This document shows, one piece after another, positions 6,566-33,285 of a stretch of 33,285 nt of DNA. Position 1 is the first letter of the stretch. The number at the start of each line of letters is the position of its first letter. The DNA is from an uncultured Eubacteriales bacterium (lineage in GTDB: Bacteria; Bacillota; Clostridia; UBA1381; UMGS1253): positions 1 through 33,285 of the forward strand of contig URQR01000002.1 in assembly GCA_900550065.1 (NCBI GenBank), in the 5' to 3' direction. The notes under the pieces were generated by a model. That model was given only the letters and a program-made list of their open reading frames with translations. It did no database searches and had not been told where the DNA came from. A program made the translations under genes and the position numbers.

Positions 6566-6568
6566 ATA

Positions 6569-6587
6569 CGCAAGCCGTTGGCTTACG
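6569..6587 (+). other. Stop-proximal hairpin related to the one after yicC
   Basis: CGCAAGCC-GTT-GGCTTACG (7 of 8 bp) directly after the priA TAA. It shares ATAAATACGCAAGCCG with 1321..1336. Confidence 0.35.
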
Positions 6588-6635
6588 CATGTTGAAATAT
6601 AATGGAACAGAACATAAATTAGGAGTGTGAGAAAT

Positions 6636-7100
6636 ATGGCAATTCGGTTTATCCGGGAGGAAGGCGATGAAGTACTGCGTAAAAAAAGCCGTGAGGTGAC
6701 GGTGTTCGACGCGCGGCTTCACACGCTGCTCGACGATATGTTTGACACGATGTACAGCGCGGACGGCGTGGGGCTGGCGGCGGTACAGGTTGGTATTTTA
6801 AAGCGCGCGATTGTAATTGACACGCGTGGTGAGGACGAGAAAATCGAGTTGATTAACCCTGTCATCGTGTCTGTTGAAGGAGAGCGCAGAATACCGGAGG
6901 CGTGTTTGAGCGTGCCGGGCGTGCGCGGGTATGTCATCCGCCCGGAAAAGGTGACGGTACGCGCAAAGGACCGCTTTGGCGTGGAGCACGAGTATACGGG
7001 CGAAGGGCTTTTAGCGCAGGCGTTCTGTCACGAGATTGAACACCTTGACGGCGGCCTGTTTATTGACAAGGTTGAAGAATATATCGAAGACGACGAATAA
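6636..7100 (+). CDS. def: Peptide deformylase
   Basis: Motifs GVGLAAVQVG, EACLSVPG and HEIEHLDG. I preferred ATG 6636 (TAGGAG SD 10 nt upstream) over the track's GTG 6627. Confidence 0.93.
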   Translation: MAIRFIREEGDEVLRKKSREVTVFDARLHTLLDDMFDTMYSADGVGLAAVQVGILKRAIVIDTRGEDEKIELINPVIVSVEGERRIPEACLSVPGVRGYVIRPEKVTVRAKDRFGVEHEYTGEGLLAQAFCHEIEHLDGGLFIDKVEEYIEDDE

Positions 7101-7130: not shown

Positions 7131-8069
7131 ATGCGGATAGTATTTATGGGAACGCCGGGCTTTGCGGCGGGATGTTTAGAGGCACTGGTGCAGGCAGGAC
7201 ATAATGTGGCTGCGGCGGTAAGCCAGCCGGACCGCCCAAAAGGACGCGGGCATAAGGTGCAGCCGACGCCGGTGCATGCTTGCGCGCAGGCGCACGGTAT
7301 CCCCATCTATCAGCCGCAGGTGATTAAAAACGGCGAGCTAGAGGATGTGCTGCAAAAGGCTGCGCCCGATGTAATTGTTGTGGTTGCATACGGGAAAATT
7401 TTACCGGAGTCTATTTTAAACTTTCCGAAATACGGCTGTATCAATGTCCATGCGTCTCTCTTGCCGAAGTACCGGGGTGCGGCGCCGATACAGTGGAGTA
7501 TTATAAACGGCGAGCGTGAAACGGGCATCACGACGATGTACATGGCGCAGGGGATTGATACGGGCGATATGATTTTAAAACACGCGATACCAATCGCGGC
7601 GGAGGAAACGGCGGGGACGCTGCACGATAAGCTGATGGCGCTTGGCGCGCAGACGCTGATTGAAACGCTTGAACGAATCGAAAACGGCACTGCGCCGCGC
7701 GAGCAGCAGGACGATAGCCAAAGCTGCTATGCGCCGATGATTGATAAGACGACGGCGCTGATTGAGTGGGATAAATCTGCACAGGAGATTTGTAACCTAA
7801 TCCGCGGCATGAACCCGTCCCCATTTGCGTATACTACGTATAAAGGCGCGCGGATGAAAATCGGTACGGCGGCGGTGTCGGATGTTGTGCCGGAGGCTGT
7901 GCCGGGAACGGTTTTGTGCGCGGGGCGCGACGGGCTTTTGGTGTGCTGCGCTGACAGCGCGCTATTGGTAAAGACTGTGCAGTTTGACGGAAAGAAAATG
8001 ATGCCCGTGGGCGACTATCTTGCGGGCCATACCATAGAAGAAGGAACTGTTTTAGGCAGGGAGGAATAA
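7131..8069 (+). CDS. fmt: Methionyl-tRNA formyltransferase
   Basis: MRIVFMGTPxFA N-terminus, HASLLPKYRGAAPIQW motif and a C-terminal formyl-transferase domain. def-fmt is a conserved pair. Confidence 0.93.
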   Translation: MRIVFMGTPGFAAGCLEALVQAGHNVAAAVSQPDRPKGRGHKVQPTPVHACAQAHGIPIYQPQVIKNGELEDVLQKAAPDVIVVVAYGKILPESILNFPKYGCINVHASLLPKYRGAAPIQWSIINGERETGITTMYMAQGIDTGDMILKHAIPIAAEETAGTLHDKLMALGAQTLIETLERIENGTAPREQQDDSQSCYAPMIDKTTALIEWDKSAQEICNLIRGMNPSPFAYTTYKGARMKIGTAAVSDVVPEAVPGTVLCAGRDGLLVCCADSALLVKTVQFDGKKMMPVGDYLAGHTIEEGTVLGREE

Positions 8070-8072
8070 GAT

Positions 8073-8771
8073 ATGCCACTGTACTACCCGTTTTTTGACA
8101 ATACGTATCTTGTTTTTGTGCTGATTCCGGTGCTTGTCTCGATTTGGGCGAGTGCGAGGGTTAATTCGACGTTTAAAAAATATTCCGATTACCGCAACGC
8201 GAGGAATCTGACTGCGGCGGAGGTGACGCGTATGATTCTCGACCGAAACGGGCAGCAGAACGTGCACATAGAGCGTGTGGGCGGCAGCTTGACCGACCAT
8301 TACGACCCGCGCGACAATACAATCCGCCTGTCGGAGAGCGTATACGACTCGACCTCCTGCGCAGCGATTGGCGTTGCGGCGCACGAGGCGGGCCATGCCG
8401 CACAGCACGCGAAGGGCTATGTGCCGATCAAAATCCGCAATGCGCTCGTGCCGGTGGCGAATTTTGCCTCGCGGCTGGCGGTGCCGCTCGTTTTGCTCGG
8501 CTTTATCATGGAGCTTGGCGGCTTGGTCGACTTTGCGATTATCTTGTATGGCGCGGTCGTGCTCTTTTCGCTGATTACCCTGCCGGTGGAATTTGATGCG
8601 AGCCGGCGCGCGGTCGTGACGCTCGACGAGTATGGAATTTTATCAACAGAAGAAAACGCGGCGGCGAAAAAAGTGCTCCGTGCGGCGGCGATGACGTATG
8701 TTGCGTCGATGCTGGTAGCGCTCGGCAGCTTTTTACGGATTTTGACGCTGTTTGGAAGAAGACGGGACTAA
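8073..8771 (+). CDS. Membrane zinc metallopeptidase, YugP-like (Zn_peptidase_2 family)
   Basis: An N-terminal TM segment, an HEAGHAAQH zinc-binding motif and C-terminal hydrophobic segments. 232 aa, as is typical for the family. Confidence 0.8.
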   Translation: MPLYYPFFDNTYLVFVLIPVLVSIWASARVNSTFKKYSDYRNARNLTAAEVTRMILDRNGQQNVHIERVGGSLTDHYDPRDNTIRLSESVYDSTSCAAIGVAAHEAGHAAQHAKGYVPIKIRNALVPVANFASRLAVPLVLLGFIMELGGLVDFAIILYGAVVLFSLITLPVEFDASRRAVVTLDEYGILSTEENAAAKKVLRAAAMTYVASMLVALGSFLRILTLFGRRRD

Positions 8772-8774
8772 ACG

Positions 8775-10115
8775 ATGGAGCAGAAAACAGGCGGCGCGCG
8801 CGTTTGCGCGCTGAAAATACTATATAAAATTGAACAAGAGGGAGCGTTTGCGAATATTGCGCTCAAGGAGGCGCCCGGACTGCGGGCATTGTCCGCACCG
8901 GACAGAGGCCTTGTGACGACGCTCGTGTACGGCTGTGTGCGCTATAAACGCTATCTTGACTATATTATCACGCAGTTTTCGAGCGTGAAGCTTAAAAAGC
9001 TTTCGCCATATGTACTGCTTTTGCTGCGTATGGGGACGTACCAGATTATGAAGCTTGACCGTGTGCCGGACAGGGCGGCGGTCGACGAATGTGTGAAGTT
9101 AGCGGGAAAGTACGCCTACCGTTCAAAGGGATTTGTGAACGCGGTTCTGCGCAAGATAGCGGCGCAAAAGCAGCAGATTCGGCTGCCGGAGGAAACGGCA
9201 CAGCGGCTTGGCGTGCAGTATTCCTACCCAGACGAAATTGTATCGGCGTGGCTTGACGCGTATGGTGCGGCTTTTACAGAAGAGCTGCTCGCGGCGGGGA
9301 ATGAGAGCGCGCCGCTCACGGTGCGGGTCAACACGCTGAAAACGGACGAGACGTCGTTAACGGAGCGCCTAAAGACAGAGGGTGTCCATGTAGAAAACGC
9401 GAACGTGGCGGGTATGCTTTCGCTGGGCGGAACAGAAATTCCTGCGCTCGAAAGCTACCGTGCGGGTCTGTTTACGCCGCAGGGGATGGCCTCCTATTTG
9501 GCGGGGGCGGTGCTTGCGCCGCGGCCGGGGGACACAGTTTTGGATTTGTGCGCCGCGCCGGGCGGCAAAAGCACGCACCTTGCGGAGTTGATGCAAAATA
9601 AAGGAAACGTATATGCGTTCGATATCCACGCACATAAAATTGCGCTGATTGAACAAAATGCGGCCCGCCTTGGCATCAATATCATCACGGCGGCACAGGC
9701 CGACGCTTCCGTGCCGATGGAGCGGTTTTTCGGCTGTGCGGACGCGGTTTTGGCGGACGTGCCGTGTAGCGGTCTTGGTATTATCCGCAAAAAGCCGGAC
9801 ATCAAGTGGGGCTTTGACGCGGCGGGACAGGACGCGCTCGCGGAGCTGCAATATCGGATTTTGTCGGCGGCGGGGCGGTATGTAAAGGCAGGCGGTACGC
9901 TCGTGTACAGCACATGTACGATTGCAGAAAAGGAAAACAACGCGGTTGTGGAGCGGTTTCTGCGCGAAAACGGCGATTTTGCGCTGGACGGCTTTGCGGA
10001 CGTACTGCCGGATAAAATGCAAAAGACGACCGCAAAGGACGGATATATACAGTTTTTCCCGCATACGGACGGGATTGACGGGTTTTTTATTTGCAGGATG
10101 AAGCGGAAAAGCTGA
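8775..10115 (+). CDS. rsmB: 16S rRNA (cytosine967-C5)-methyltransferase
   Basis: An N-terminal NusB-like domain plus a SAM methyltransferase core (DLCAAPGGKS, DVPCSGLGIIRKKPDIKW, YSTCT). fmt-rsmB is a conserved neighbourhood. Confidence 0.9.
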   Translation: MEQKTGGARVCALKILYKIEQEGAFANIALKEAPGLRALSAPDRGLVTTLVYGCVRYKRYLDYIITQFSSVKLKKLSPYVLLLLRMGTYQIMKLDRVPDRAAVDECVKLAGKYAYRSKGFVNAVLRKIAAQKQQIRLPEETAQRLGVQYSYPDEIVSAWLDAYGAAFTEELLAAGNESAPLTVRVNTLKTDETSLTERLKTEGVHVENANVAGMLSLGGTEIPALESYRAGLFTPQGMASYLAGAVLAPRPGDTVLDLCAAPGGKSTHLAELMQNKGNVYAFDIHAHKIALIEQNAARLGINIITAAQADASVPMERFFGCADAVLADVPCSGLGIIRKKPDIKWGFDAAGQDALAELQYRILSAAGRYVKAGGTLVYSTCTIAEKENNAVVERFLRENGDFALDGFADVLPDKMQKTTAKDGYIQFFPHTDGIDGFFICRMKRKS

Positions 10116-12066: not shown

Positions 12067-14029
12067 ATTTATACAGATCGGCTCGCTGCTGGGCGGGCGG
12101 TATGAAATCATTGAAAAGATTGGCGCGGGCGGTATGGCGGAGGTTTATAAGGCGCGCTGCCGCCTGCTAAATCGCTATGTTGCGATTAAGGCGCTTAAGC
12201 CGGAATATGCGGGCGATGCGGAGTTTCTGAAACGGTTTGAAATCGAAGCACAGGCGGCGGCGAGCCTGTCGCACCCGAACATCGTGTCGGTGTATGACGT
12301 GGGCTATGACGCAGGCCGTCACTATATTGTGATGGAGCTTGTCGAGGGCGTGACGCTTAAGGGCTATATTGCAAAGAAGGGGGCGCTCCCGTGGCGGGAA
12401 GCGGCCGGCTTTGCTGCACAAATTTGCTCCGCGCTCGAATGTGCGCACAAAAAACGAATTATTCACCGCGACATCAAGCCGCACAATATTATTATCACGC
12501 CGGAAGGCGTCGCGAAGGTGACCGATTTTGGTATTGCGCGGGCGGCCAGCTCGACGACGATGGTCGCCGACGGCTCTGTCATGGGGTCGGCGCATTATCT
12601 TTCGCCGGAGCAGGCGCGCGGCGGCTATACAGACGAAAAATCCGATATTTATTCAGCCGGTGTGACGCTGTATGAAATGCTGACGGGGCGCGTACCGTAT
12701 GAGGCGGACAGCCCGGTGTCCGTCGCGATGATGCATGTGTCGGGCGATCTGGTTCAGCCGCGTATCATCAATCCGGACATTCCGGAGGATATGGAAAAGA
12801 TTGTACTTAAAGCAATGAGTAAGGAGCAGTCCTTGCGCTATGCAAGTGCGGAGGATATGCTCTATGACATCAATGCGGTGCTGTCGAACCGCGCAATCGC
12901 GCCCGCGCCGGAGCCGACGCAGGTGATGGAGGGGCGTGCCCGTGAGGGAGCGCGCCGCAGAGGGGCGCAGGCCGCGTCCGACACGGCGCATCAAGCAAAA
13001 AACAAATCAAAAGGGAAAAAGGACAAACAGCCGCTTACAAAGAGTGAGAAGCGGATGGTGTGGCTTGCAGTTGCGGCGGCGGTCGTTTTGATTGGGATTG
13101 TCGGCGTTGTCTGCATGTCGTGGTTTGGCGTGTTCGGTGCGTGGCAGTGGGACGAAACGGTTGTGCCGGAAATTGAGGGTAAAACGCTGGAGGAAGCGAC
13201 GAAGCTGCTAAAGGATGCAAAGTTAGAGATTGACATTGACGAGGAGATTGCGTCGACCCAGTACGAAAAGGACACGATTATTTCGCAGGAGCCGGCTGCG
13301 GGCCGGACTGTAAAAAAAGGCGTCAAAGTGCGCGTCAAGGTCAGCACAGGGATCGGCGACAAGATTTCGATTCCAAATGTTGTAAACTATGAAAAAGAAA
13401 ACGCGAAATCCACGCTGGAAAAGTCGGGCTTTGTAGTCGTGTTTACAGAAGAGGAAAGCGATACTGTGCCGGAAAATACAGTTATACGGCAGTCACCGGC
13501 CGCGGGGACAGAGGCCAAGAGCGGCGATACGGTGCGGCTGTATGTCAGCGGGAAGGCGGCGAGCGAAAAGGTGCCGGTGCCGAACGTAATCGGCAAGTCG
13601 CTCGCACAGGCAAAAAATGATATAGAGGCGGCGGGCCTTGTTGTAGGCAATGTCGCCGAGCAGGAGTCCGAGCAGGCGGTCGGGACAGTGATCCGGCAGA
13701 GCCCGTCGGGCGGCATGGCAGATAAAAAGAGCGCAGTCGCGCTTACGGTAAGCAAGGGGCAGAAGGCGACACCGACACCAACGCCGAATACACCAACGCC
13801 GCCTCCACCGTCCGAGGAGCCGCAAAAGGTGAAGACGATTAGCCTGCCTGTGCCTCAGAACAAAGAATCGACCCAAATTCGCGTTGTCGCCAATGGGACG
13901 ACAATCCATGATGCGCTTCACCACAAGAGCGAGGTCAGCTTCGATTTGCGCGTGACGGGCCGCAATACGGCGACGCTGGAAATTTATCACGACGGCACGC
14001 TTGTAGGAACGCAGACGGTGAATTTTTAA
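12059..14029 (+). CDS. prkC: Ser/Thr protein kinase with three PASTA repeats (PrkC/PknB type)
   Basis: Hanks kinase motifs (GAGGMAEVYKA, HRDIKPHN, DFGIA, SPEQA), a TM segment (VWLAVAAAVVLIGIVGVVC), three PASTA repeats, a Pro/Thr linker and a terminal beta-rich domain. I set the start at ATG 12059 (MSEFIQIGS...), overlapping the stp stop. The track's upstream extension from 11975 lies inside stp. Confidence 0.92.
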   Translation: MSEFIQIGSLLGGRYEIIEKIGAGGMAEVYKARCRLLNRYVAIKALKPEYAGDAEFLKRFEIEAQAAASLSHPNIVSVYDVGYDAGRHYIVMELVEGVTLKGYIAKKGALPWREAAGFAAQICSALECAHKKRIIHRDIKPHNIIITPEGVAKVTDFGIARAASSTTMVADGSVMGSAHYLSPEQARGGYTDEKSDIYSAGVTLYEMLTGRVPYEADSPVSVAMMHVSGDLVQPRIINPDIPEDMEKIVLKAMSKEQSLRYASAEDMLYDINAVLSNRAIAPAPEPTQVMEGRAREGARRRGAQAASDTAHQAKNKSKGKKDKQPLTKSEKRMVWLAVAAAVVLIGIVGVVCMSWFGVFGAWQWDETVVPEIEGKTLEEATKLLKDAKLEIDIDEEIASTQYEKDTIISQEPAAGRTVKKGVKVRVKVSTGIGDKISIPNVVNYEKENAKSTLEKSGFVVVFTEEESDTVPENTVIRQSPAAGTEAKSGDTVRLYVSGKAASEKVPVPNVIGKSLAQAKNDIEAAGLVVGNVAEQESEQAVGTVIRQSPSGGMADKKSAVALTVSKGQKATPTPTPNTPTPPPPSEEPQKVKTISLPVPQNKESTQIRVVANGTTIHDALHHKSEVSFDLRVTGRNTATLEIYHDGTLVGTQTVNF

Positions 14030-14031
14030 GA

Positions 14032-14910
14032 GTGGGGGGTCTTGGTCTGACTGGCGTAATTATAAAGGGAATCGGCGGCTTTTACTATGTAAAGGCCGAA
14101 GATGAGATTTTTGAATGTAAGGCGCGGGGCCGGTTTCGTAAGGAGGGCCTTGTGCCAATGGTGGGCGATACGGTAAGTATAAGCGTCAAAAACGGCAAGG
14201 GGAGTATTGACGAAATTTTGCCGCGTACAACGATGCTGATTCGGCCCGCGGTCGCCAATATCGACCAGCTTGTGGTTGTTGTCGCGCTCCGCTCGCCCGA
14301 GCCGCACGCTGCCCTGATTGACCATTTTTTGATTCTCGGCGAGCATAGCGGTATTGAAACGGTGCTATGCTTTAATAAAGCGGACTTACCGCATACACAG
14401 GAGCTTGTGGACATCTATCGAAACGCCGGTTACCGCGTCGTTTTGACGAGCGTGGAAACAGGCGAGGGCGTCGAGGAGCTAAAAAGCTTGTTAAAGGGTA
14501 AAATTACCGCGTTTGCGGGGAATTCCGGCGTCGGAAAGTCGAGCCTTCTAAACGCGCTTGGTGCGCCGGAGGGATTGGAGACCGGGCGCGTCAGCGAGAA
14601 AATCCAGCGTGGACGGCATACGACGCGCCATGTTGAGCTGATTGAGCTGGACGGCTGCGCGCTGGCGCTCGATACGCCGGGGTTTTCGAGCTTTGAGATG
14701 CCTGCGGTGAAAGCGGAAGAGCTGCAAGATTATTTTATCGAATTTGCGTCGTATATTGGGGGCTGCAAATTCCGCGGCTGCGCGCACATCAGTGAGCCGG
14801 GCTGCGCGGTGTTAGAGGCCGTAGCGCAGGGCAAGGTGTCGAAGCTGCGCCATAATAGCTACAAAGAGCTGTATCAGGAATTAAAGAAAGTGAAAGAATG
14901 GGAAACATGA
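14032..14910 (+). CDS. rsgA: Ribosome small-subunit-dependent GTPase A
   Basis: An OB-fold N-terminus (GFYYV), circularly permuted GTPase motifs (NKADL ... GNSGVGKSSL ... DTPG) and a C-terminal zinc knuckle (CKFRGCAHISEPGC). Confidence 0.92.
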   Translation: MGGLGLTGVIIKGIGGFYYVKAEDEIFECKARGRFRKEGLVPMVGDTVSISVKNGKGSIDEILPRTTMLIRPAVANIDQLVVVVALRSPEPHAALIDHFLILGEHSGIETVLCFNKADLPHTQELVDIYRNAGYRVVLTSVETGEGVEELKSLLKGKITAFAGNSGVGKSSLLNALGAPEGLETGRVSEKIQRGRHTTRHVELIELDGCALALDTPGFSSFEMPAVKAEELQDYFIEFASYIGGCKFRGCAHISEPGCAVLEAVAQGKVSKLRHNSYKELYQELKKVKEWET

Positions 14911-27309: not shown

Positions 27310-27690
27310 ATGGATAAGTTGGTGATAGAGGGCGGAAAAACGCTGGAGGGCGAGGCGCGCGTACACGGTGCGAAAAACGCCGTATTGCCGATTTTGGCCG
27401 CTACGGTTTTAAACAGTGGAAAAAACGTGATCCACGGCTGTCCGGATTTAAAGGACGTCCGCTCGTCAATCAATATCCTGCGGCATTTGGGATGCGGCGT
27501 ACATAGAGAGGGCGACACACTGATTGTCGATTCCGCCGGGATTACGAACTGTGAAATACCGGAGGGGTTGATGCATGAGATGCGTTCATCCGTTATCTTT
27601 TTGGGGGCAATCCTTGCCCGGTTCGGCCGGGCGGTGACATCGCTGCCGGGAGGCTGTGAATGCTTGTTGTGCCGGTGCAGTGCTGCGTAG
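27310..27690 (+). pseudogene. murA: UDP-N-acetylglucosamine 1-carboxyvinyltransferase, 5' fragment only (truncated)
   Basis: MDKLVIEGGKTLEGEARVHGAKNAVLPILAA...SLPGGC matches the MurA N-terminus up to the active-site PGGC (Cys116, codon 27655..27657). The expected AIGxRPxD continuation is absent. Instead there are 10 unrelated codons and a TAG at 27688..27690. Full-length MurA is ~420 aa; this ORF is 126 aa. Confidence 0.8.
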
Positions 27691-27779: not shown

Positions 27780-28430
27780 TTATACGATATCCCTTACAAT
27801 TTCGTCTAAAGATTTAGTAATCACGTGAAGGCAAAACTCTTTTATCATTTCAAGGCCTTCTTCCTTATCGCCGTATTGTTGGCCTGTTAGAGGCGATTCG
27901 ACTGCAAACATTAAATCCTTTAGTACTAATAAACCATCCTCGCCGTGGCAGATGTCACGGTATTTTTTTATGTACTGCAATAAAACACCGAACCGGTCGT
28001 GGGAGATTAGGTTATTGAGCAAGTCTAAGGTTATTTGTGCCTGCCGCATTGTGTAGGGCAAGACGTCGTTTTCGTAATCGAAGCCCAACGCTTCAAATTT
28101 TTCCCTATTTTCCTGTGCCATTCCTGTCGAAAGAAGCTTTTGGCCCGCAAAAAATTTCATCGTATCTTCGGAGAGGCCTGCTTGCTGTACGGTTAAATTT
28201 GCTTCCATATCAAGCCGAAAGTCGGAAAACCCAATCAAATAATCACACGAAACGCCCAAATACTGTGCCATTTTTGCAGCGAGGTCAATATCCGGCGAAC
28301 GCTTGCCCAAAATGTAGTAATTGATACTTTGTCGGGAACAATTCATCTTTTCTGCAAATTCTCCCTGTGAAATATTCTTTTCTGTCAGTAGGGAGAGCAG
28401 CCGCTGTCCAAACATTTGTTGCAAATCCAT
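27780..28430 (-). CDS. XRE-family helix-turn-helix regulator with a ~150-aa C-terminal domain of unknown function
   Basis: MDLQQMFGQRLLSLLTEKNISQGEFAEKMNCSRQSINYYILGKRSPDIDLAAKMAQYLGVSCDYLIG is a classic HTH_3/XRE domain. I set the start at ATG 28430 (AAGGAG SD 7 nt upstream). The track's upstream start at 28481 has no SD. Confidence 0.85.
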   Translation of the reverse strand: MDLQQMFGQRLLSLLTEKNISQGEFAEKMNCSRQSINYYILGKRSPDIDLAAKMAQYLGVSCDYLIGFSDFRLDMEANLTVQQAGLSEDTMKFFAGQKLLSTGMAQENREKFEALGFDYENDVLPYTMRQAQITLDLLNNLISHDRFGVLLQYIKKYRDICHGEDGLLVLKDLMFAVESPLTGQQYGDKEEGLEMIKEFCLHVITKSLDEIVRDIV

Positions 28431-28451: not shown

Positions 28452-28483
28452 ATATTTGTTGCTATAGAAAATAAAATGCAATT
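28452..28483. promoter_or_regulatory. Conserved 32-nt block in the xre / module-1 divergent intergenic region (candidate operator)
   Basis: ATATTTGTTGCTATAGAAAATAAAATGCAATT matches 31309..31339 (ATATTTGTTGTGATATAAATAAAATGCAATT) at 28 of 32 aligned columns. It sits just upstream of the -35 of the module-1 promoter. Confidence 0.4.
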
Positions 28484-28489
28484 TAAGTA

Positions 28490-28519
28490 TTGACGAAATT
28501 TGGTATTATGGCCTATAAT
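28490..28519 (+). promoter_or_regulatory. SigA-type promoter candidate for island module 1
   Basis: TTGACG (28490..28495), an 18-nt spacer, TATAAT (28514..28519), about 70 nt upstream of the 28588 start. Confidence 0.55.
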
Positions 28520-28587
28520 TATTCTACGCAACAAAAGAGCGGACGTCAAGGGATAAGAAAAAATTAAAAAAAGGGGAGCGATGGAAA

Positions 28588-29874
28588 ATGCAAAACAGAC
28601 TGTTGGAAAAAGACACGGGCGCCAAAACACCAAGGTGGGAGTTTGCGTTCTTGAGCGGTTTAACAGGGGAACCAGCCGGCCGGTTTTACAAGGTTGTACC
28701 CGAGAACACCGCGTCCACGTGCAAAAAGTGCAGCGAGATGGGGAATCAATTGTTTTTGATTCGGGAGGCGGTAAAGGGGAAAAACTTCCCGCCGTTTCAC
28801 CCGCACTGTCGCTGTACGGCGGTCGATAAGGACGGAAAGCGGGTTGTACTATGGATTGACCGCTACATCGGCACGATGCAGCAGTGCTATGGATTTACAG
28901 AAGAGGAAAGCGAGCTCATTTTGCAGGCGTACCGCCTTCTGTCCAACGAGGCTAAGCGGCTGGGCCTGTCACGGCAGCAGCAGATTCACCATGTTTTCTC
29001 GAAGATGGCGGCGTTGTGCGACGCATATTCGGGTGAAAATTTTATATTTAGAGCCGCCGCCAGACACCCCTCCACCGAAGAGGCAAAGCTGCACCTGATT
29101 GCGCTGGGGATGGGGGAAAATGATACGGAAGCCCTGTACAAGGCAATTATGCGTCAGTATTATTCACAGATTGATGAGATAGACTTTGCGCATGAGCTGG
29201 CAGTTATATCGATTGCGGCAGAGGATTTCATCATTAACAATACGGTAGATGCGCTATTTGCGGACTTGACCGCTGTGGGGAGCTATAAAGGCGACGTGTT
29301 TTCCGCGTCTATGCCGCCGGACGACATGAACGCGGATGTGGACGGGACGAACGTGTATAATCGTATGCTGTCGGGCAATAAAGGATTTTTCGACATTCTT
29401 ATCGAATATAACGAGGGAGTGAAAGACGGCACAATTAACCGAGTGGACGAGTTTTTGCGGTTCTATGGAGATGGGGATACGAAGAAGGGGTTACAGTATA
29501 TAAAAGATGATTTGCTGAATGTGGATATGGCGTCGCATTATTTGAGTGAGACGTATTATAAAATCCCCGATGATACTTGGGAAAAAATAAAGGAAACAAC
29601 AGGACTTGACAGTGAAATAATCAGAAAAATACCGGGTTATGGTTTAGAAACGGCCGGAGATTTATTTATCAAGACTCTGTTACTCTTACCCGGAGTGAAT
29701 TTTATTAACAAAGTATCGGGCGCTGATTTATTAAGTAAGACCAATGCAAACAGATCGTTTGAGGAAAGCAAGGCATATGCAGAGAGTAAAGAGGGAAAGG
29801 AAAAAAACGTAAAGAGTATCACAGAAGTAAGTGAAGCATTTATCAAATATTTAGAGGAAGGGATGAGTAAGTGA
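28588..29874 (+). CDS. Module-1 head protein: truncated MuF/SPP1-gp7-like N-terminal motif fused to a ~345-aa C-terminal region of unknown function (toxin-like architecture)
   Basis: A GGGGAG SD lies 9 nt upstream of the ATG. Residues 31-76 read GRFYKVVPENTASTCKKCSEMGNQLFLIREAVKGKNFPPFHPHCRC, the CxxC...PPxHPxCRC signature that closes phage MuF-type head-morphogenesis domains. I recognised no catalytic motif in the remainder. It has no signal peptide. Confidence 0.6.
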   Translation: MQNRLLEKDTGAKTPRWEFAFLSGLTGEPAGRFYKVVPENTASTCKKCSEMGNQLFLIREAVKGKNFPPFHPHCRCTAVDKDGKRVVLWIDRYIGTMQQCYGFTEEESELILQAYRLLSNEAKRLGLSRQQQIHHVFSKMAALCDAYSGENFIFRAAARHPSTEEAKLHLIALGMGENDTEALYKAIMRQYYSQIDEIDFAHELAVISIAAEDFIINNTVDALFADLTAVGSYKGDVFSASMPPDDMNADVDGTNVYNRMLSGNKGFFDILIEYNEGVKDGTINRVDEFLRFYGDGDTKKGLQYIKDDLLNVDMASHYLSETYYKIPDDTWEKIKETTGLDSEIIRKIPGYGLETAGDLFIKTLLLLPGVNFINKVSGADLLSKTNANRSFEESKAYAESKEGKEKNVKSITEVSEAFIKYLEEGMSK

Positions 29875-30551
29875 AAGAAAAAATAAAGCTTAGTTGTGGA
29901 CTTGGCTGTGGGACAGTATTAATTCTGTTTATTGTAGGAATTATTTTTTTAAAATTAATATTCTACATACCACCAACTATATTTATAGAAAATAAGGCAA
30001 TTGGTTATATCATTGAACACATTGATGAGTTTAAGGATGAGATTAATGCAATGGGGTATGAGGTTAGGGTGGCGTATACGTTGGGGGAGATGTTGGGAGA
30101 GGATTTTGAAGAAGATGAATACAGTAATAAACAAACAAAGCTTGGATATAACGACCGTGGAATACTAATCTTATCAGCAGGCAATGACGAGTATCGGTTT
30201 GATACTGGCATAGAATACTACAAGACATATATTAACGATGGGGCGACTTTTCTAGCTATGTCTAAGAGTAATGAGAATGAGGTTTTAGATTTAGATAGCG
30301 GAAATGATGTATACCCTGTCCGCGTAACTTTAAACAATGAAGAGATTGACAATTACTGGATAAGCTCGCTTTGGAATGACTATAACATTAGTTTTACCGA
30401 AGCAAGAGAGGTTGGGTTACACGGTGTTCAAAAACAGGCCGATAGTTGGATAAAAAAATACATCTCCGCAGAGGAGCTGCGTGCGATATACGAGCGGTGC
30501 ATTGGATTGCAGGAGAAGCTGGTGGAGATGTACAAAATGAGGAAGGGATGA
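29871..30551 (+). CDS. Module-1 partner protein A: N-terminally membrane-anchored, candidate immunity protein
   Basis: The GTG start overlaps the upstream stop (GTGA). MKEKIKLSCGLGCGTVLILFIVGIIFLKLIFYI is a basic N-terminus plus one TM segment. It is a paralog of the next gene. Confidence 0.6.
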   Translation: MKEKIKLSCGLGCGTVLILFIVGIIFLKLIFYIPPTIFIENKAIGYIIEHIDEFKDEINAMGYEVRVAYTLGEMLGEDFEEDEYSNKQTKLGYNDRGILILSAGNDEYRFDTGIEYYKTYINDGATFLAMSKSNENEVLDLDSGNDVYPVRVTLNNEEIDNYWISSLWNDYNISFTEAREVGLHGVQKQADSWIKKYISAEELRAIYERCIGLQEKLVEMYKMRKG

Positions 30552-30555
30552 GTAA

Positions 30556-31164
30556 GTGAAAGAAAAAATAAAGCTTGGCTGTGGACTTGGCTGTGGGACA
30601 GTATTAATTTTTTTTATTTTAGGATTTATTTTTTTGAGGTTACTTGTCTATGCACCACCAACTGTATTTATAGAAAATAAGGCAATTGGTTATATCATTG
30701 AGCACGTGGACGAGTTTAAGGGTGAAATTAACGCAATGGGATATGAGGTTAGGGTGGCGTATACATTAGGAGAACGCAAGAAGAAGTATAATCCAGCCGA
30801 TCAGGGGTTACAGAAGAAAATGGGGTATAGAGAACGGGGAATTTTAATTTTAGAAAGGGAAAACGAAGAGTACGTATTTGACGTTGGTTTTGACTATTGT
30901 AACATAGAGTTGGAGGATGATAGGACTGTATTTATGCGTAAAGGACGACAAGTGTCAATTTATAGTCAATATAACTCTACAAATAGTAATCATTATAATA
31001 TTGATTTTACCGAGGCCGATAGTATTGGGCTACACGGCGCAGAACGACGGATTGACAAACAAATCAAAGAACACATCTCCGCCGAGGAGCTGCGTGCGAT
31101 ATACGAGCGGTGCATAGGCTTGCAGGAGCGGTTAGTGGAGTTGTACAAGGCGAAGAAGGGATAG
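30556..31164 (+). CDS. Module-1 partner protein B: paralog of 29871..30551
   Basis: The first 73 aa are nearly identical to the upstream gene (MKEKIKLGCGLGCGTVLIFFILGFIFLRLLVY...EVRVAYTLGE), as is the C-terminus (ISAEELRAIYERCIGLQERLVELYKAKKG). The centre is diverged and shorter. Confidence 0.6.
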   Translation: MKEKIKLGCGLGCGTVLIFFILGFIFLRLLVYAPPTVFIENKAIGYIIEHVDEFKGEINAMGYEVRVAYTLGERKKKYNPADQGLQKKMGYRERGILILERENEEYVFDVGFDYCNIELEDDRTVFMRKGRQVSIYSQYNSTNSNHYNIDFTEADSIGLHGAERRIDKQIKEHISAEELRAIYERCIGLQERLVELYKAKKG

Positions 31165-31168
31165 TGAA

Positions 31169-31203
31169 AAAGAGCAAATCCGAAAAAGATTTGCTCTTTT
31201 TTG
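31169..31203 (+). terminator. Rho-independent terminator closing module 1
   Basis: AGAGCAAATC (31171..31180), loop CGAAAAA, GATTTGCTCT (31188..31197), followed by a T-run. The 10-bp perfect stem can be extended by A-T pairs. Confidence 0.8.
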
Positions 31204-31211
31204 TTAAAAGG

Positions 31212-31288
31212 ATTTTTCGACATCCCCCTATGAGAAATTATTTCTATAAATACAACAAATGCTGTATAAACTCTTGTTGTAAACCCGT
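31212..31288 (-). pseudogene. Decayed 5' remnant of an XRE regulator gene (paralog of 27780..28430)
   Basis: The minus-strand reading ACG GGT TTA CAA CAA GAG TTT ATA CAG CAT TTG TTG TAT TTA TAG gives (T)GLQQEFIQHLLYL*, against MDLQQMFGQRLLSLL of the intact gene. The start codon is ATG>ACG and a stop follows after 14 codons. The DNA aligns by hand to 28345..28430 (27 of 35 matches in the best stretch). Confidence 0.6.
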
Positions 31289-31308
31289 GAAAAAATATTC
31301 TTTTGAGC

Positions 31309-31339
31309 ATATTTGTTGTGATATAAATAAAATGCAATT
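31309..31339. promoter_or_regulatory. Second copy of the conserved upstream block
   Basis: See 28452..28483. This is the best-conserved part of the duplicated xre/promoter region, lying ~80 nt upstream of the module-2 start. Confidence 0.4.
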
Positions 31340-31418
31340 AAAATAATAACAAAATTTCAAAAGTGACGTATACCTCATGCTAACAACAAACGTACGTTTC
31401 GTTAAGTGATAATATTTT

Positions 31419-32396
31419 ATGGGCGGCTATACAAAAAAAGAAACTGTTGGTATAATAAAACAAACGGATGTACCCCAACAGGGTGTATTTTTCCATACCA
31501 AAAAGTATGCTGCGGATGGAACGTTTTACAGAATCATTGCCGAGCCGTCTCCCACCCAATGCAGCCATTGCGCACAAATGCAGGGCGTGGTCCTGTACGG
31601 GAGCGCGGCGGAAATCGCGAAGGTGCTGCCACCGTATCATCCGAACTGCCGGTGTAAATATGAGGAATTGGACGAGGCAACCTACCGCTTTTTAGTGATG
31701 CAAGCGGAAATCCAAATGAGTGGAAAGCTGACGGACGTAGGTAAGGGCGTATATGTGTTTGATGTGTTTGGTAGGTATGGGTTTAATAAAACAAGCGATA
31801 CTTCTGTCTTTGGTATTCTCGATAAGGCGATTGGTAAGGAAAGTGCGACAAATTTATTATGGAAACACAGAGGGGCCCCTCTCCTACGTATTGATTTACC
31901 ACAGGCAAATCAACATTCCAATGGCAAACCAATTGATTTTAATCATATGCATCTTGATTCATCTTTACCAAATGCCAAAGAAGGCCATATCAAGATATCG
32001 GATAATATAATTGATTTAGGCGTAAGCGCCAACAAGGCAGGAAAAGTACTCAAGGTTGGCGGAAAAGCGGCTGCTGTCGTTGGCGTCGTACTGGATGTAG
32101 CTGATATTGGAACAGCCATGTACGAGGACGGCGGCTGGGGTGAGAACACAAATGTTGCAGTTGGCGGCGCGGCCGGCAGTTGGGCTGGCGGCGCAGTTGG
32201 TGCAAAAGCAGGGGTGGCGATTGGAACAGCGATTGGGGCGATGTTCGGCGGTGTGGGAGCAGCGCCGGGCGCGGCGATTGGCGGTCTTGTCGGCGGCCTG
32301 ATTGGCAGTATCGGCGGCGCAGTTGGCGGCCGTTGGCTTGGCGAACAGGCGGGAGAGTTAGTCAATGATACAGCAGCGTACAACAGTCAAAATTAA
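31419..32396 (+). CDS. Module-2 head protein: truncated MuF-like N-terminal motif, a middle region of unknown function, and a C-terminal glycine-zipper (membrane-active toxin-like)
   Basis: Residues 34-79 read GTFYRIIAEPSPTQCSHCAQMQGVVLYGSAAEIAKVLPPYHPNCRC, homologous to the module-1 head. Residues ~213-308 are Gly/Ala/Val/Ile-rich with repeated GxxxG/GxxxA spacing (GGAAGSWAGGAVGAKAGVAIGTAIGAMFGGVGAAPGAAIGGLVGGLIGSIGGAVGG). It has no SD upstream, and an in-frame TAA at 31410..31412 fixes the ATG as the first possible start. Confidence 0.55.
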   Translation: MGGYTKKETVGIIKQTDVPQQGVFFHTKKYAADGTFYRIIAEPSPTQCSHCAQMQGVVLYGSAAEIAKVLPPYHPNCRCKYEELDEATYRFLVMQAEIQMSGKLTDVGKGVYVFDVFGRYGFNKTSDTSVFGILDKAIGKESATNLLWKHRGAPLLRIDLPQANQHSNGKPIDFNHMHLDSSLPNAKEGHIKISDNIIDLGVSANKAGKVLKVGGKAAAVVGVVLDVADIGTAMYEDGGWGENTNVAVGGAAGSWAGGAVGAKAGVAIGTAIGAMFGGVGAAPGAAIGGLVGGLIGSIGGAVGGRWLGEQAGELVNDTAAYNSQN

Positions 32397-32408: not shown

Positions 32409-33077
32409 ATGGGAATATTAAATGGACTGGCTGAGTCGTATAAAGCTTGGAAACAGAGGCAGGCGGATCGGGAAGCCGAGTGGCGGGCGCAAATGCAGCA
32501 TGGATTTTCATACATTGATTTAAAGCGTTTGGACGACGGTACACTTTACGTTTCAACGGAGCCGGTTCCTTATCGAAGCTGGGATGGAACATTATTTAAT
32601 CTTATGATGGTTGATTCGATCTATGCGCTTTTAAAAGGGCGTCATGTTCTTGGAAAAAGCTTTGAGGACATGGACTTAAGCCAGTTTGATAACCTTTATG
32701 AAATTATCAATTTTGATATAGCATTGGGCGCTTGTCTGATTGGTAAGAATAAAATGCTTTTAACAAACGATTTTAACAAGCGGTTAGTCGCAGATTTGGT
32801 TTTTGAAACCCAGGCAATGGAGTATGAAGACTCTGTAAAGCTATTTGCAATTGAAAAGGACGTCTTTGACCGACTGAAAAGCGGTGCGCTGACTGCTGAG
32901 GCGTGCATGGAACAAGAAAATTATGACTTTTACATTGGCTCGGGAGCAGATCACGACTATTTCACAGTCTACCGCCCGTCGCACGAGTATGGCGATATAA
33001 TTGAGGTGATAGAAGAGGTTATGGCTCCGTATGGGCTTGCGGTGAAATATGGGGAGGGACAAGCATGGGAATATTAA
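32409..33077 (+). CDS. Module-2 partner protein A: soluble 222-aa protein, candidate immunity protein
   Basis: An AAGGAGGG SD lies 6 nt upstream. I saw no TM segment and recognised no family. It sits immediately downstream of the glycine-zipper protein. Confidence 0.5.
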   Translation: MGILNGLAESYKAWKQRQADREAEWRAQMQHGFSYIDLKRLDDGTLYVSTEPVPYRSWDGTLFNLMMVDSIYALLKGRHVLGKSFEDMDLSQFDNLYEIINFDIALGACLIGKNKMLLTNDFNKRLVADLVFETQAMEYEDSVKLFAIEKDVFDRLKSGALTAEACMEQENYDFYIGSGADHDYFTVYRPSHEYGDIIEVIEEVMAPYGLAVKYGEGQAWEY

Positions 33078-33285
33078 AATGGTTAAAGGAACGCAGAGAA
33101 AGATACAAGTCATTGATTGAATATGCGCCCACCAAATATGAAGAAAGCCTTTATATTTCTTTATATCAAGATAGGCTTTATGTGTCAATTGATGAGACGT
33201 CTATCTATTATTATGGAAAACATGTTTTAGAAACCATCATCTGCGACTTAATCTATACCTTACTGAAACCGCACGCTGTCATCGC
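33065..33285 (+). CDS. Module-2 partner protein B (partial; continues beyond the window), distant paralog of 32409..33077
   Basis: Hand translation gives MGILKWLKERRERYKSLIEYAPTKYEESLYISLYQDRLYVSIDETSIYYYGKHVLETIICDLIYTLLKPHAVI..., open to the window end. It has the same 26-nt SD/start string as the upstream gene and shares the MGIL, LYVS and IYxLLK features. It overlaps the upstream stop by 13 nt. Confidence 0.5.
   Translation, partial: MGILKWLKERRERYKSLIEYAPTKYEESLYISLYQDRLYVSIDETSIYYYGKHVLETIICDLIYTLLKPHAVI

Follow-up and report, generated by a model that had tools for sequence, protein, structure and literature searches.

The toxin genes and the element that carries them

The subject of this analysis is a 33,285-nt window of DNA (contig URQR01000002.1, assembly GCA_900550065.1) from an uncultured Eubacteriales bacterium (Clostridia, UBA1381, UMGS1253). 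Near its right end lie two genes, encoding a 428-aa protein (toxin 1; 28588-29874, forward strand) and a 325-aa protein (toxin 2; 31419-32396, forward strand), whose short N-terminal heads are homologous and whose tails are unrelated. Each is followed by genes for immunity-like proteins, and both sit on a small element inserted in the gene murA (Table 1). The preliminary description of this DNA, which placed both open reading frames (ORFs) correctly and quoted peptides that match, had read the pair as polymorphic toxins. Our results support that reading: the similarity of the heads is significant, the tails vary behind the head, and the tails also occur behind other heads. Related loci and proteins are cited below by L and P numbers, respectively.

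Table 1. Features of the murA element and its toxin modules in the window
Feature	Position	Strand	Basis
murA 5' fragment, 126 aa, interrupted by the insertion of the element	27310..27690	+	PF00275 positions 2-116 of 417, E=1.3e-17
Left attachment-site repeat TCGCTGCCGGGAGGCTGTGA (murA codons SLPGGCE)	27640..27659	+	20-mer, one mismatch against the right-junction copy in L003
XRE-family helix-turn-helix (HTH) regulator, 216 aa from the MDLQQ start, divergent from toxin 1	27780..28430	-	HTH_3 E=2e-13
13-mer ATAAAATGCAATT, copy 1, just upstream of the toxin-1 promoter-like site, possible operator	28471..28483	+	exact-repeat search
Promoter-like site TTGACG-18-TATAAT, toxin-1 operon	28490..28519	+	11/12 consensus matches
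Toxin 1 head, residues 1-80, mini-MuF putative zinc knuckle C45-x2-C48 ... P68-P69-x-H71-P-x-C74-x-C76	28588..28827	+	PF04233, phrog_115, TIGR01641, BFVD
Toxin 1 tail, residues ~93-428, TelC-like (Lipocone), motifs DFAHE, YKGDV, DDMNADVDGTNVYNR	28864..29874	+	AF2, Foldseek, profile against PDB
Immunity-like protein 1a, 226 aa, N-terminal transmembrane helix	29871..30551	+	hydrophobic windows at residues 4-40; homologue in L008
Immunity-like protein 1b, 202 aa, tandem paralogue of 1a	30556..31164	+	56% identity to 1a
Intrinsic-terminator-like hairpin and U run, end of toxin-1 operon	31162..31206	+	RNA fold -17.9 kcal/mol, z=-4.97
13-mer ATAAAATGCAATT, copy 2, within a promoter-like site (31316-31344) upstream of toxin 2	31327..31339	+	exact-repeat and promoter search
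Toxin 2 head, residues 1-83, mini-MuF putative zinc knuckle C48-x2-C51 ... PPYHPNCRC79	31419..31667	+	PF04233, phrog_115, TIGR01641, hhalign
Toxin 2 tail: middle domain (~residues 115-200), amphipathic helix, double glycine zipper (residues ~245-305; 32151-32333)	31668..32396	+	
Immunity-like protein 2, 222 aa, no transmembrane segment	32409..33077	+	always 3' of toxin 2 homologues (L003-L006, L021)
Start of a second immunity-like protein 2 paralogue, running off the window	33065..33285	+	translation MGILKWLKERRE... parallels MGILNGLAESYK... of the 222-aa protein

The two toxin genes lie in separate operons, between which the terminator-like hairpin stands. The promoter-like site of toxin 1 is the best in the region, a GGGGAG ribosome-binding site (RBS) lies 8 nt before the toxin-1 ATG (28588), and the GTG start of immunity 1a overlaps the toxin-1 stop (GTGA). 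Neither toxin ORF can be extended upstream, since the ORF list begins each ORF at the first start codon after a stop. An overlapping 82-aa ORF at 28581-28829 was rejected as a gene, as it merely reads the head in the +2 frame and has its ATG at a distance of 1 nt from the RBS. In the whole window the 13-mer ATAAAATGCAATT occurs without mismatch just twice, upstream of toxin 1 and upstream of toxin 2; with up to one mismatch allowed, chance would produce ~0.1 matches. Outside the window it is kept only in loci that are nearly identical (L003-L005 and L007), and the neighbouring XRE protein may use it as an operator common to both toxin genes. At the right end of the window, the second immunity-2 paralogue begins 13 nt before the stop of the first copy (33065).

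The window stops before the recombinase, and the right end of the element is known from L003-L005, where the left part is 98-100% identical to the window. The order there is murA-5', XRE regulator, toxin 1, immunity, toxin 2, immunity, DUF4176, a 521-aa large serine recombinase, murA-3' and ftsQ ... ftsZ. The element, of ~7 kb, carries no genes besides those of the XRE regulator, the toxins, the immunity proteins, DUF4176 and the recombinase. It interrupts murA in the dcw cluster, between murG and ftsQ. In L003, a murA 5' part of 126 aa and a 3' part of 247 aa, the latter beyond the recombinase, border the element (split murA and recombinase region at 6567-6947, 12416-13981 and ~13985-14904). 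Direct repeats of 20 bp mark both junctions, and fusing the TCGCTGCCGGGAGGCTGTGA copies in L003 restores ...SLPGGCE-LGPRPIDLHL... and an intact MurA in frame. The recombinase has the domains Resolvase, Recombinase and Zn_ribbon_recom; its nearest NCBIfam models are XisF or CcrA, below the cut-off. L003 has DUF4176 where the window has the second immunity-2 paralogue, and the right part of the element therefore varies between strains.

Modules of XRE regulator, toxin and immunity gene were found in three insertion contexts: toxins 1 and 2 together in the murA element (L003-L007), toxin 1 beside a different serine recombinase (L001), and toxin 2 in L021, ~5.4 kb downstream of a Tn916-type integrase. 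The XRE regulator that adjoins homologues of toxin 1 or toxin 2 in L001, L003 and L021 is the same one. A scan of a genome collection gave 16 loci, none of them from the window's own species. Upstream of the element, the window carries housekeeping genes identified with Pfam (YicC, Gmk, CoaBC, PriA, Fmt, RsmB, RlmN, PASTA kinase, RsgA and MraW), and then the cell-wall and division genes for a penicillin-binding protein (PBP), MurE, MurF, MraY, FtsW and MurG, assigned via the Pfam annotation of the syntenic L003 and L007. The G+C content of the last 5.7 kb of the window is 38-49%, compared with 50-58% upstream.

A shortened MuF head in front of many tails

The heads of the two toxins are homologous. 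BLASTP aligned residues 31-76 of toxin 1 with residues 34-79 of toxin 2 at 35% identity (E=1e-10) and found no significant similarity between the two proteins outside the head. A profile-profile comparison of nine heads of the toxin-1 family with four of the toxin-2 family extended the match to residues 13-80 and 16-82 (hhalign probability 98.4%, E=5.6e-15). The homology over the whole N-termini that had been read by hand therefore holds for nearly all of their length, the exception being the first ~12-15 residues, which are not demonstrably homologous. The two proteins do start at equivalent positions, with an offset of 3-4 residues and a joint alignment that is almost gap-free from the N-termini, and the similarity does break off shortly after the CRC motif, 4-6 residues beyond it. 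The regions of DNA that encode the two heads have no similarity to each other.

Residues C45, C48, P68, P69, H71, C74 and C76 are invariant in a 10-sequence alignment of heads, and the span from CxxC to CxC is 32 residues in 124 of the 126 relatives. A conserved set of Cys/His ligands, as proposed in the preliminary description, thus exists, although it comprises five candidates (C45, C48, H71, C74 and C76) and not four. In the wider head family, T, D or G sometimes replaces the last Cys and, more rarely, S replaces the first, so that the four metal ligands may be any of these five. Zinc binding by this knuckle is plausible from its conservation.

Of the contact-dependent inhibition (CDI), Rhs and MuF families with which the architecture had been compared, MuF is the right one. 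Toxin 1 matches PF04233 over positions 75-111 of 112 (E=2.4e-5, 25.5 bits) and toxin 2 over positions 57-110 (E=0.016, 16.4 bits; gathering score 29.6), and the matches to TIGR01641 are E=1.3e-7 and 32 bits for toxin 1 and E=8.4e-5 and 22.9 bits for toxin 2 (cut-off 39.65). These Pfam and NCBIfam scores fall below the curated cut-offs because two thirds of the domain are absent. PHROG 115, "minor head protein", is matched by toxin 1 at E=6.6e-11 and by toxin 2 at E=2.9e-6. In the BFVD library of viral structures, the sole confident matches of the toxin-1 model are minor capsid proteins, over 56-86 columns, and GenBank phages match toxin 1 through residues 18-138 only, always within "minor head protein" genes. 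The head is therefore the C-terminal third of the MuF/SPP1-gp7 minor-capsid domain (PF04233 ~57-111 of 112), with the invariant pattern CxxC...PPxHPxCxC. We refer to this short form as mini-MuF.

The shortening is evident from the position of the motif. In IMG/VR, PP[FY]HPNC ends near residue 303 of the ORF in 75 of 80 loci, which corresponds to the full MuF region, and in the window proteins it ends at residue 76 (toxin 1) or 79 (toxin 2). Neither toxin has a complete, above-threshold MuF domain of the PF04233, PF06152, MuF3 or MuF4 type. Searches of PDB sequences with the head profile gave no solved relative, a search of IMG/VR with full toxin 1 gave no relative, and phage records and viral contigs contained no near-identical head. 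The short form is ancestral and not a recent truncation, since the start position is shared by homologues with identities as low as 45% and the XRE-toxin modules are found at three different insertion sites. An accidental deletion that joined an early promoter to the 3' end of a muf gene was considered and rejected as a general explanation, as the short architecture is kept across distant homologues and many tail families.

Three observations concern the knuckle in other proteins. P0058 and P0062 carry two tandem copies, CxxC...PPxH..C.C, behind a segment that looks SAP-like by eye and outside any MuF or toxin architecture; the knuckle is therefore an autonomous module. In L024 (6004-8837), a 460-aa protein, intermediate in length between mini- and full MuF, consists of a ~190-residue N-terminal region, the knuckle and a tail common to P0059, P0158 and L025, and is encoded directly downstream of the spore-germination gene ypeB. 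In the toxin-1 homologues P0006 and P0008-P0011, a faint precomputed match to PF27189 "YkzU" stands beside the MuF match.

The tails behind the head are diverse. A search of 1.84 billion representative proteins with a profile built from ten heads gave 3267 matches at E<=0.001, and tails were surveyed in the best 150 of these. In 23 of the 150, the motif falls within ~125 residues of the N-terminus and the tail is 90 aa or longer. Together with the two families of the window, these 25 tails fall into 15 groups with no BLAST similarity between groups. Homologues of the head hence do not always share one C-terminal domain, and at least 15 unrelated tail families follow it. The tails of the window, of 350 and 245 aa, are variable C-terminal extensions of at least 100 aa. 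A further search, with the alignment of heads as query, brought nothing new: its 17 matches were all small proteins or fragments (59-148 aa). Some of the "short" mini-MuF database entries are possibly truncated gene calls, as P0158 and P0185 appear to be, while L015-L017, L025 and L027 are bounded by upstream stops.

The Pfam domains found in mini-MuF tails were Peptidase_M23 (two), Phage_lysozyme2 (two), SLT, Amidase_2, Phage_lysozyme and Glucosaminidase, and every mini-MuF tail that could be identified is of a kind that attacks the envelope from its outer side. A peptidoglycan-hydrolase tail was present in 8 of 20 mini-MuF proteins and in none of ten full-length, long-tailed MuF proteins drawn from the same match list, of which one had Ntox44 and nine had no identified domain. 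With samples this small, the enrichment of hydrolase tails on mini-MuF heads is suggestive only (Fisher two-sided p=0.029). In P0079 (L014 1334-2317) and P0069, mini-MuF and Phage_lysozyme2 occur together with a lipobox (LSGC). P0079 has an out-of-frame MNKK start one base upstream, in an A-run, and restoring the frame would give a textbook lipoprotein signal peptide; the neighbouring leucine-rich repeat (LRR) protein is also a predicted lipoprotein.

Tails and immunity-like proteins of toxins 1 and 2

The tail of toxin 1 is distantly related to TelC, a lipid II phosphatase that Streptococcus intermedius exports with its type VII secretion system (T7SS) (PMC5555719). The AlphaFold2 (AF2) model of toxin 1 has a predicted local distance difference test (pLDDT) score of 78.5 and a predicted template modelling (pTM) score of 0.68, with a beta-rich knuckle at the N-terminus. 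In a Foldseek search of the PDB, TelC (5ukh) was the only match with E<=0.001 (E=3.7e-4, probability 1.0, template modelling (TM) score 0.38/0.50), and a tail-1 profile searched against PDB sequences matched 5ukh_A at E=2.1e-5. The alignment pairs DFAHE with DFTHQ, YKGDV with GWEGD and DDMNADVDGTN with DDYKADLDSVN, and residues D199, H202, E203, D250, N255 and R259 of tail 1 are invariant in 13 sequences. The conserved Asp-rich motif of TelC is reported to bind Ca2+ and to be needed for toxicity (PMC5555719), and we infer that the DDxxxDxDxxN stretch of tail 1 would correspond to it. TelC is toxic only from outside the cell (PMC5555719), and its immunity protein TipC is membrane-anchored (PMC6193138). 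Immunity proteins 1a and 1b each have a single N-terminal transmembrane helix. Its cytoplasmic tip is rich in Lys, and the domain behind the helix is accordingly predicted to face outward.

Tail 1 is not confined to the MuF head. It also occurs behind the PAAR-like domain DUF4280 in P0013 and behind an N-terminus without a family match in P0014, and in L008 a fusion of DUF4280 and tail 1 is followed by an immunity-1a homologue (E=4e-23). The surrounding region of L008 (5464-10381) is a Firmicutes-type cluster comprising a Phage_GPD (VgrG-like) gene, two small ORFs, the DUF4280/PAAR-like-TelC-like toxin and its immunity gene. This arrangement suggests a spike-based injection system delivering the same tail 1.

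Comparison with sister strains revealed a second, more recent level of variation inside tail 1. The DNA of toxin 1 is ~96% identical to that of L006 from the promoter through residue ~324, the identity with sister strains then falls to 20-41% at 29562-29741 (residues ~325-385, a hypervariable sub-region), and it partly recovers at the conserved C-terminal end (...FIKYLEEGMSK), which overlaps the start of the immunity gene. The newest strain-to-strain swap point thus lies inside tail 1 and not at the CRC boundary. The number of immunity-1 paralogues varies between strains as well, and immunity 1b is 99% identical to the sole immunity gene after toxin 1 in L003. In L006, a 139-aa C-terminal fragment of a toxin-1 variant (8040-8459), with a variable region of the P0006 type, is followed by its own 224-aa immunity gene (8456-9130). 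This orphan pair lies between the main toxin/immunity pair and a 202-aa immunity gene, which is the classic displaced-cassette arrangement. Modularity thus has two tiers: old junctions between head and tail ~15 residues after CRC, and recent swaps of the tail-1 sub-region together with the immunity gene. The ORFs adjacent to the toxins on their downstream side, of 202-226 aa, overlap the toxin genes or lie close to them and co-vary with the tails; an immunity role is predicted for them.

The tail of toxin 2 is of a different kind. It carries tandem (G/A/S)xxx(G/A/S) zippers in C-terminal hydrophobic helices, in which G265/269/273 and G280/284/288/292 are nearly invariant, with 58% Gly+Ala and a small-residue-x3 periodicity, and pore formation is predicted. 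Its relative P0047 has sub-threshold matches to Gly-zipper Pfam families. Tail 2 also ends P0041 and P0047, whose N-terminal parts were read by eye as ends of Rhs/YD cores, and the cyanobacterial P0043. With regard to the Rhs reading, P0041 had no Pfam match at E<=0.01 and P0047 had no match to an Rhs/YD family.

Immunity-like protein 2 had no family match in Pfam or NCBIfam, and L021 carries extra paralogues of it. TelE, a glycine-zipper toxin, is countered by an immunity protein that is soluble (PMC10434224), and because of this precedent the 222-aa protein, which lacks a transmembrane segment, is a credible immunity candidate. A small DUF4176 gene ends the toxin-2 module, after the immunity genes, in L003-L005 and L021, a position that lies beyond the end of the window. 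DUF4176 proteins are described as chaperones, specific to secretion systems of type VIIb (T7SSb), for hydrophobic toxin regions (PMC12478183).

Proposed explanation and relation to known systems

A toxin-immunity function for these genes is highly probable, because the tails move between PAAR-like, Rhs-like and MuF heads, the immunity genes move with the tails, orphan fragments and immunity arrays occur, and tail 1 has a TelC-like active site. The explanation that we favor as a whole, and hold to be probable with less assurance, is that the locus comprises two independently transcribed antibacterial toxin-immunity operons, carried as cargo together with an XRE regulator on a serine-recombinase element in murA. 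The knuckle of ~80 residues, probably zinc-binding and drawn from the C-terminal end of MuF/gp7, would serve as a constant handle for recombined toxin tails, with old swaps falling just after the CRC motif and recent ones exchanging the tail-1 sub-region and the immunity gene. Working on the outer face of the membrane, tail 1 would cleave lipid II, or else a related precursor with an undecaprenyl link, and would be neutralised by the outward-facing, membrane-anchored immunity proteins. Tail 2 would enter the membrane as a helical hairpin with a double glycine zipper and so cause depolarisation or permeabilisation; in the producer a soluble binding protein would neutralise this tail, and in the sister loci the DUF4176 chaperone would keep it soluble. 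Export is the least certain step. The likeliest means, in our view, is that a MuF-type phage resident in the same cell supplies particles in trans and that the knuckle attaches the toxin to their portal or DNA. This capsid route, suggested by homology, is possible and somewhat doubtful. It is consistent with the targeting of gp7 to the procapsid by portal binding (PMC6316719) and with the fact that the knuckle is the most conserved part of the MuF domain.

Several results weigh against this explanation. Only about one third of PF04233 is kept and the ~200-residue N-terminal MuF region is gone, so that ~200-250 MuF residues are missing from the two toxins. No portal, terminase or capsid gene was found in the window, in L001, L003 or L021, or beside other mini-MuF genes (nine contexts). 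In the P0079/P0069 lineage, the lipobox implies a knuckle that is probably extracellular and not in a capsid. A capsid contains only 1-3 copies of a gp7-type protein (PMC5576092, PMC12226406), a low number for a pore-former, and the T7SSb link of DUF4176 (PMC12478183) points to a different export route. With regard to the tails, the similarity to TelC is distant (14% identity, TM score 0.38-0.50), and a search of PDB sequences with the immunity-1 profile matched neither TipC nor anything else. The AF2 model of toxin 2, built on a 12-sequence alignment, had a pLDDT of 38 and was unusable, and it was kept out of the fold search.

The different export route to which DUF4176 points is T7SSb or another dedicated secretion system. 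The toxins would then be LXG-type cargo in which the LXG head has been replaced and the knuckle is a new recognition or adaptor domain. The closest solved relative of tail 1 is the T7SSb toxin TelC, and the combination seen in toxin 2, a glycine-zipper tail and a soluble immunity candidate, has its counterpart in TelE/TipE (PMC10434224). A DUF4176 gene, from a family described as T7SSb-specific chaperones (PMC12478183), closes the module of toxin 2 in both L003 and L021, and the outside action on the envelope of every identifiable mini-MuF tail would fit such export. However, Pfam and NCBIfam gave no LXG/WXG helical domain, the operons contain no Lap-like small helical partner genes, and neither the window nor the related loci of 21 kb contain an EssC, EsaA or EssB gene. 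Known signals of this system are helical hairpins and not Cys/His knuckles, and the DUF4176 chaperone could have travelled with the tail cassette. We regard dedicated secretion as unlikely. Somewhat less likely still is that the knuckle is an autonomous module binding nucleic acid or an envelope ligand and not a delivery tag, with release by lysis or a non-specific, bacteriocin-like route. The knuckle does occur in non-MuF architectures (the tandem copies of P0058 and P0062) and in predicted lipoproteins with a lysozyme domain, mini-MuF genes lie among housekeeping genes, and hydrolase tails are found on mini-MuF and not on full-length MuF heads, although that sample is small. Such release would require a ~45-kDa enzyme to cross the Gram-positive wall unaided, the element has no holin or lysis gene, and TelC-type antagonism is contact-dependent in the studied case (PMC5555719).

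It is also conceivable, and we think very improbable, that the genes are orphan cassettes, that is, stored 3' ends of muf-toxin genes whose head stretch is a recombination handle into a full-length prophage muf gene, as in cdiA-CT and rhs-CT. The extent of the head coincides exactly with the conserved stretch that directly precedes the variable boundary, and L006 contains a true promoterless orphan, the toxin-1 C-terminal fragment with its immunity gene. In IMG/VR, the N-truncated MuF modules of L051 (408-1466), L088 (543-1448) and L091 (1486-2391) are ~90% identical to residues 186-307 of a full-length MuF (reference L045, 2968-4305) and then continue into different tails; nothing upstream of these modules matches MuF residues 1-185, and they may be orphan cassettes of streptococcal-type MuF toxins, a kind that goes unmentioned in the 2017 MuF paper. 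In contrast, both toxin genes of the window have their own promoter-like site, RBS and start codon, and the N-terminus and start position are kept in homologues down to 45% identity and in three insertion contexts. The lack of DNA similarity between the two head-coding regions and of a near-identical head in phage records or viral contigs argues in the same direction. A bolder version of the capsid route, which seems to us improbable, is that the ~50-residue knuckle alone is a sufficient ticket into tailed-phage particles via portal or DNA binding, with the products of chromosomal and integrative-element genes, each just this tag and a pore-former or an enzyme that attacks the envelope, hitch-hiking in trans in the capsids of any MuF-type phage induced in the cell, or else that it defines a wholly new route in Clostridia for exporting or targeting envelope effectors. 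If the knuckle is such a ticket, phages would deliver a class of toxins and wall hydrolases that they do not themselves encode, ejecting them into the wall zone of the next host.

The favored explanation, two toxin-immunity operons carried on the murA element, can be placed among several known systems. As a side finding, the locus exposes a serine-recombinase element that splits murA. From its sequence, it resembles the gene-splitting elements of the skin, SPbeta and fdxN type in having a split target gene, short junction repeats, a terminal recombinase and in-frame restoration. The orphan cassettes of CDI, Rhs and MafB systems share with our loci a short constant-region remnant before alternative tails, immunity arrays and the orphan fragment of L006, whereas the short forms here are complete genes with promoter-like sites and conserved starts and no master gene in view.

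For toxin 2, the likeness to TelE/TipE, other glycine-zipper toxins (Tse4, CdzC/D) and the DUF4176 Ltc chaperones (PMC10434224, PMC12478183) lies in the C-terminal zipper, the soluble immunity candidate and the presence of DUF4176 in sister loci. It is not based on sequence homology to TelE, and it differs in the lack of an LXG domain and in that DUF4176 was seen only in L003-L005 and L021. Toxin 1 shares with TelC/TipC (PMC5555719, PMC6193138) the fold and sequence match, the aligned DFxH and DDxxxDxDxxN motifs, membrane-anchored immunity and tandem immunity paralogues. The differences are the 14% identity, an extra hypervariable helical sub-region (residues ~325-400), a non-LXG head and immunity proteins unrelated to TipC. 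The prok-TelC family belongs to the Lipocone superfamily, and MuF is among the heads fused to Lipocone toxin domains (PMC12419801). The pairing of MuF with Lipocone is thus already listed, though not for TelC specifically, and the locus adds a non-T7SS carrier for TelC-like toxins.

The closest relatives are the MuF toxins (Zhang et al. 2012, PMC3482391; Jamet et al. 2017, PMC5576092; Apk2, Bxa). They likewise occur in gut Firmicutes, and they have a MuF-derived N-terminus ending in PPxHPxCRC, variable tails and adjacent immunity genes, of which more than one can follow in Bxa and Apk2 (PMC11699363), as here. Our toxins differ in keeping only the last ~45-55 residues of PF04233, and their genes are not beside portal or terminase genes and not in a prophage, whereas in the published survey 96% of chromosomal muf genes were in prophages or remnants and muf is described as "systematically associated" with head genes (PMC5576092, PMC12226406). 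Immunity ORFs of MuF toxins are typically shorter than 150 aa (PMC5576092), compared with 202-226 aa here. The characterised MuF toxins act in the cytoplasm (ADP-ribosyltransferase, (p)ppApp synthetase), while the TelC-like and glycine-zipper tails of this locus would be envelope-directed. In the MuF-toxin literature that we examined, delivery has not been demonstrated and the capsid ride is presumed. We found no description in the literature of N-terminal mini-MuF heads, their non-phage contexts or an envelope-tail bias, and the words "orphan" and "truncated" are absent from the main MuF paper (PMC5576092).

If the knuckle proves to be the capsid-targeting determinant, it would offer a minimal tag for a direct test of capsid delivery; if it does not, the function attributed to the best-conserved stretch of MuF would have to be reconsidered. 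The small survey of tails further suggests that mini-MuF heads are preferentially paired with envelope-directed tails, namely peptidoglycan hydrolases of six kinds, a glycine zipper and a domain resembling the lipid II phosphatase TelC. The locus keeps the MuF logic of head, tail and immunity and departs from two published defining features, the full MuF domain and the phage head module. Our study shows that the constant part of MuF can shrink to a knuckle of ~50-80 residues, leave the phage, and sit on small integrative elements and on the chromosomes of gut Oscillospiraceae and Clostridia.

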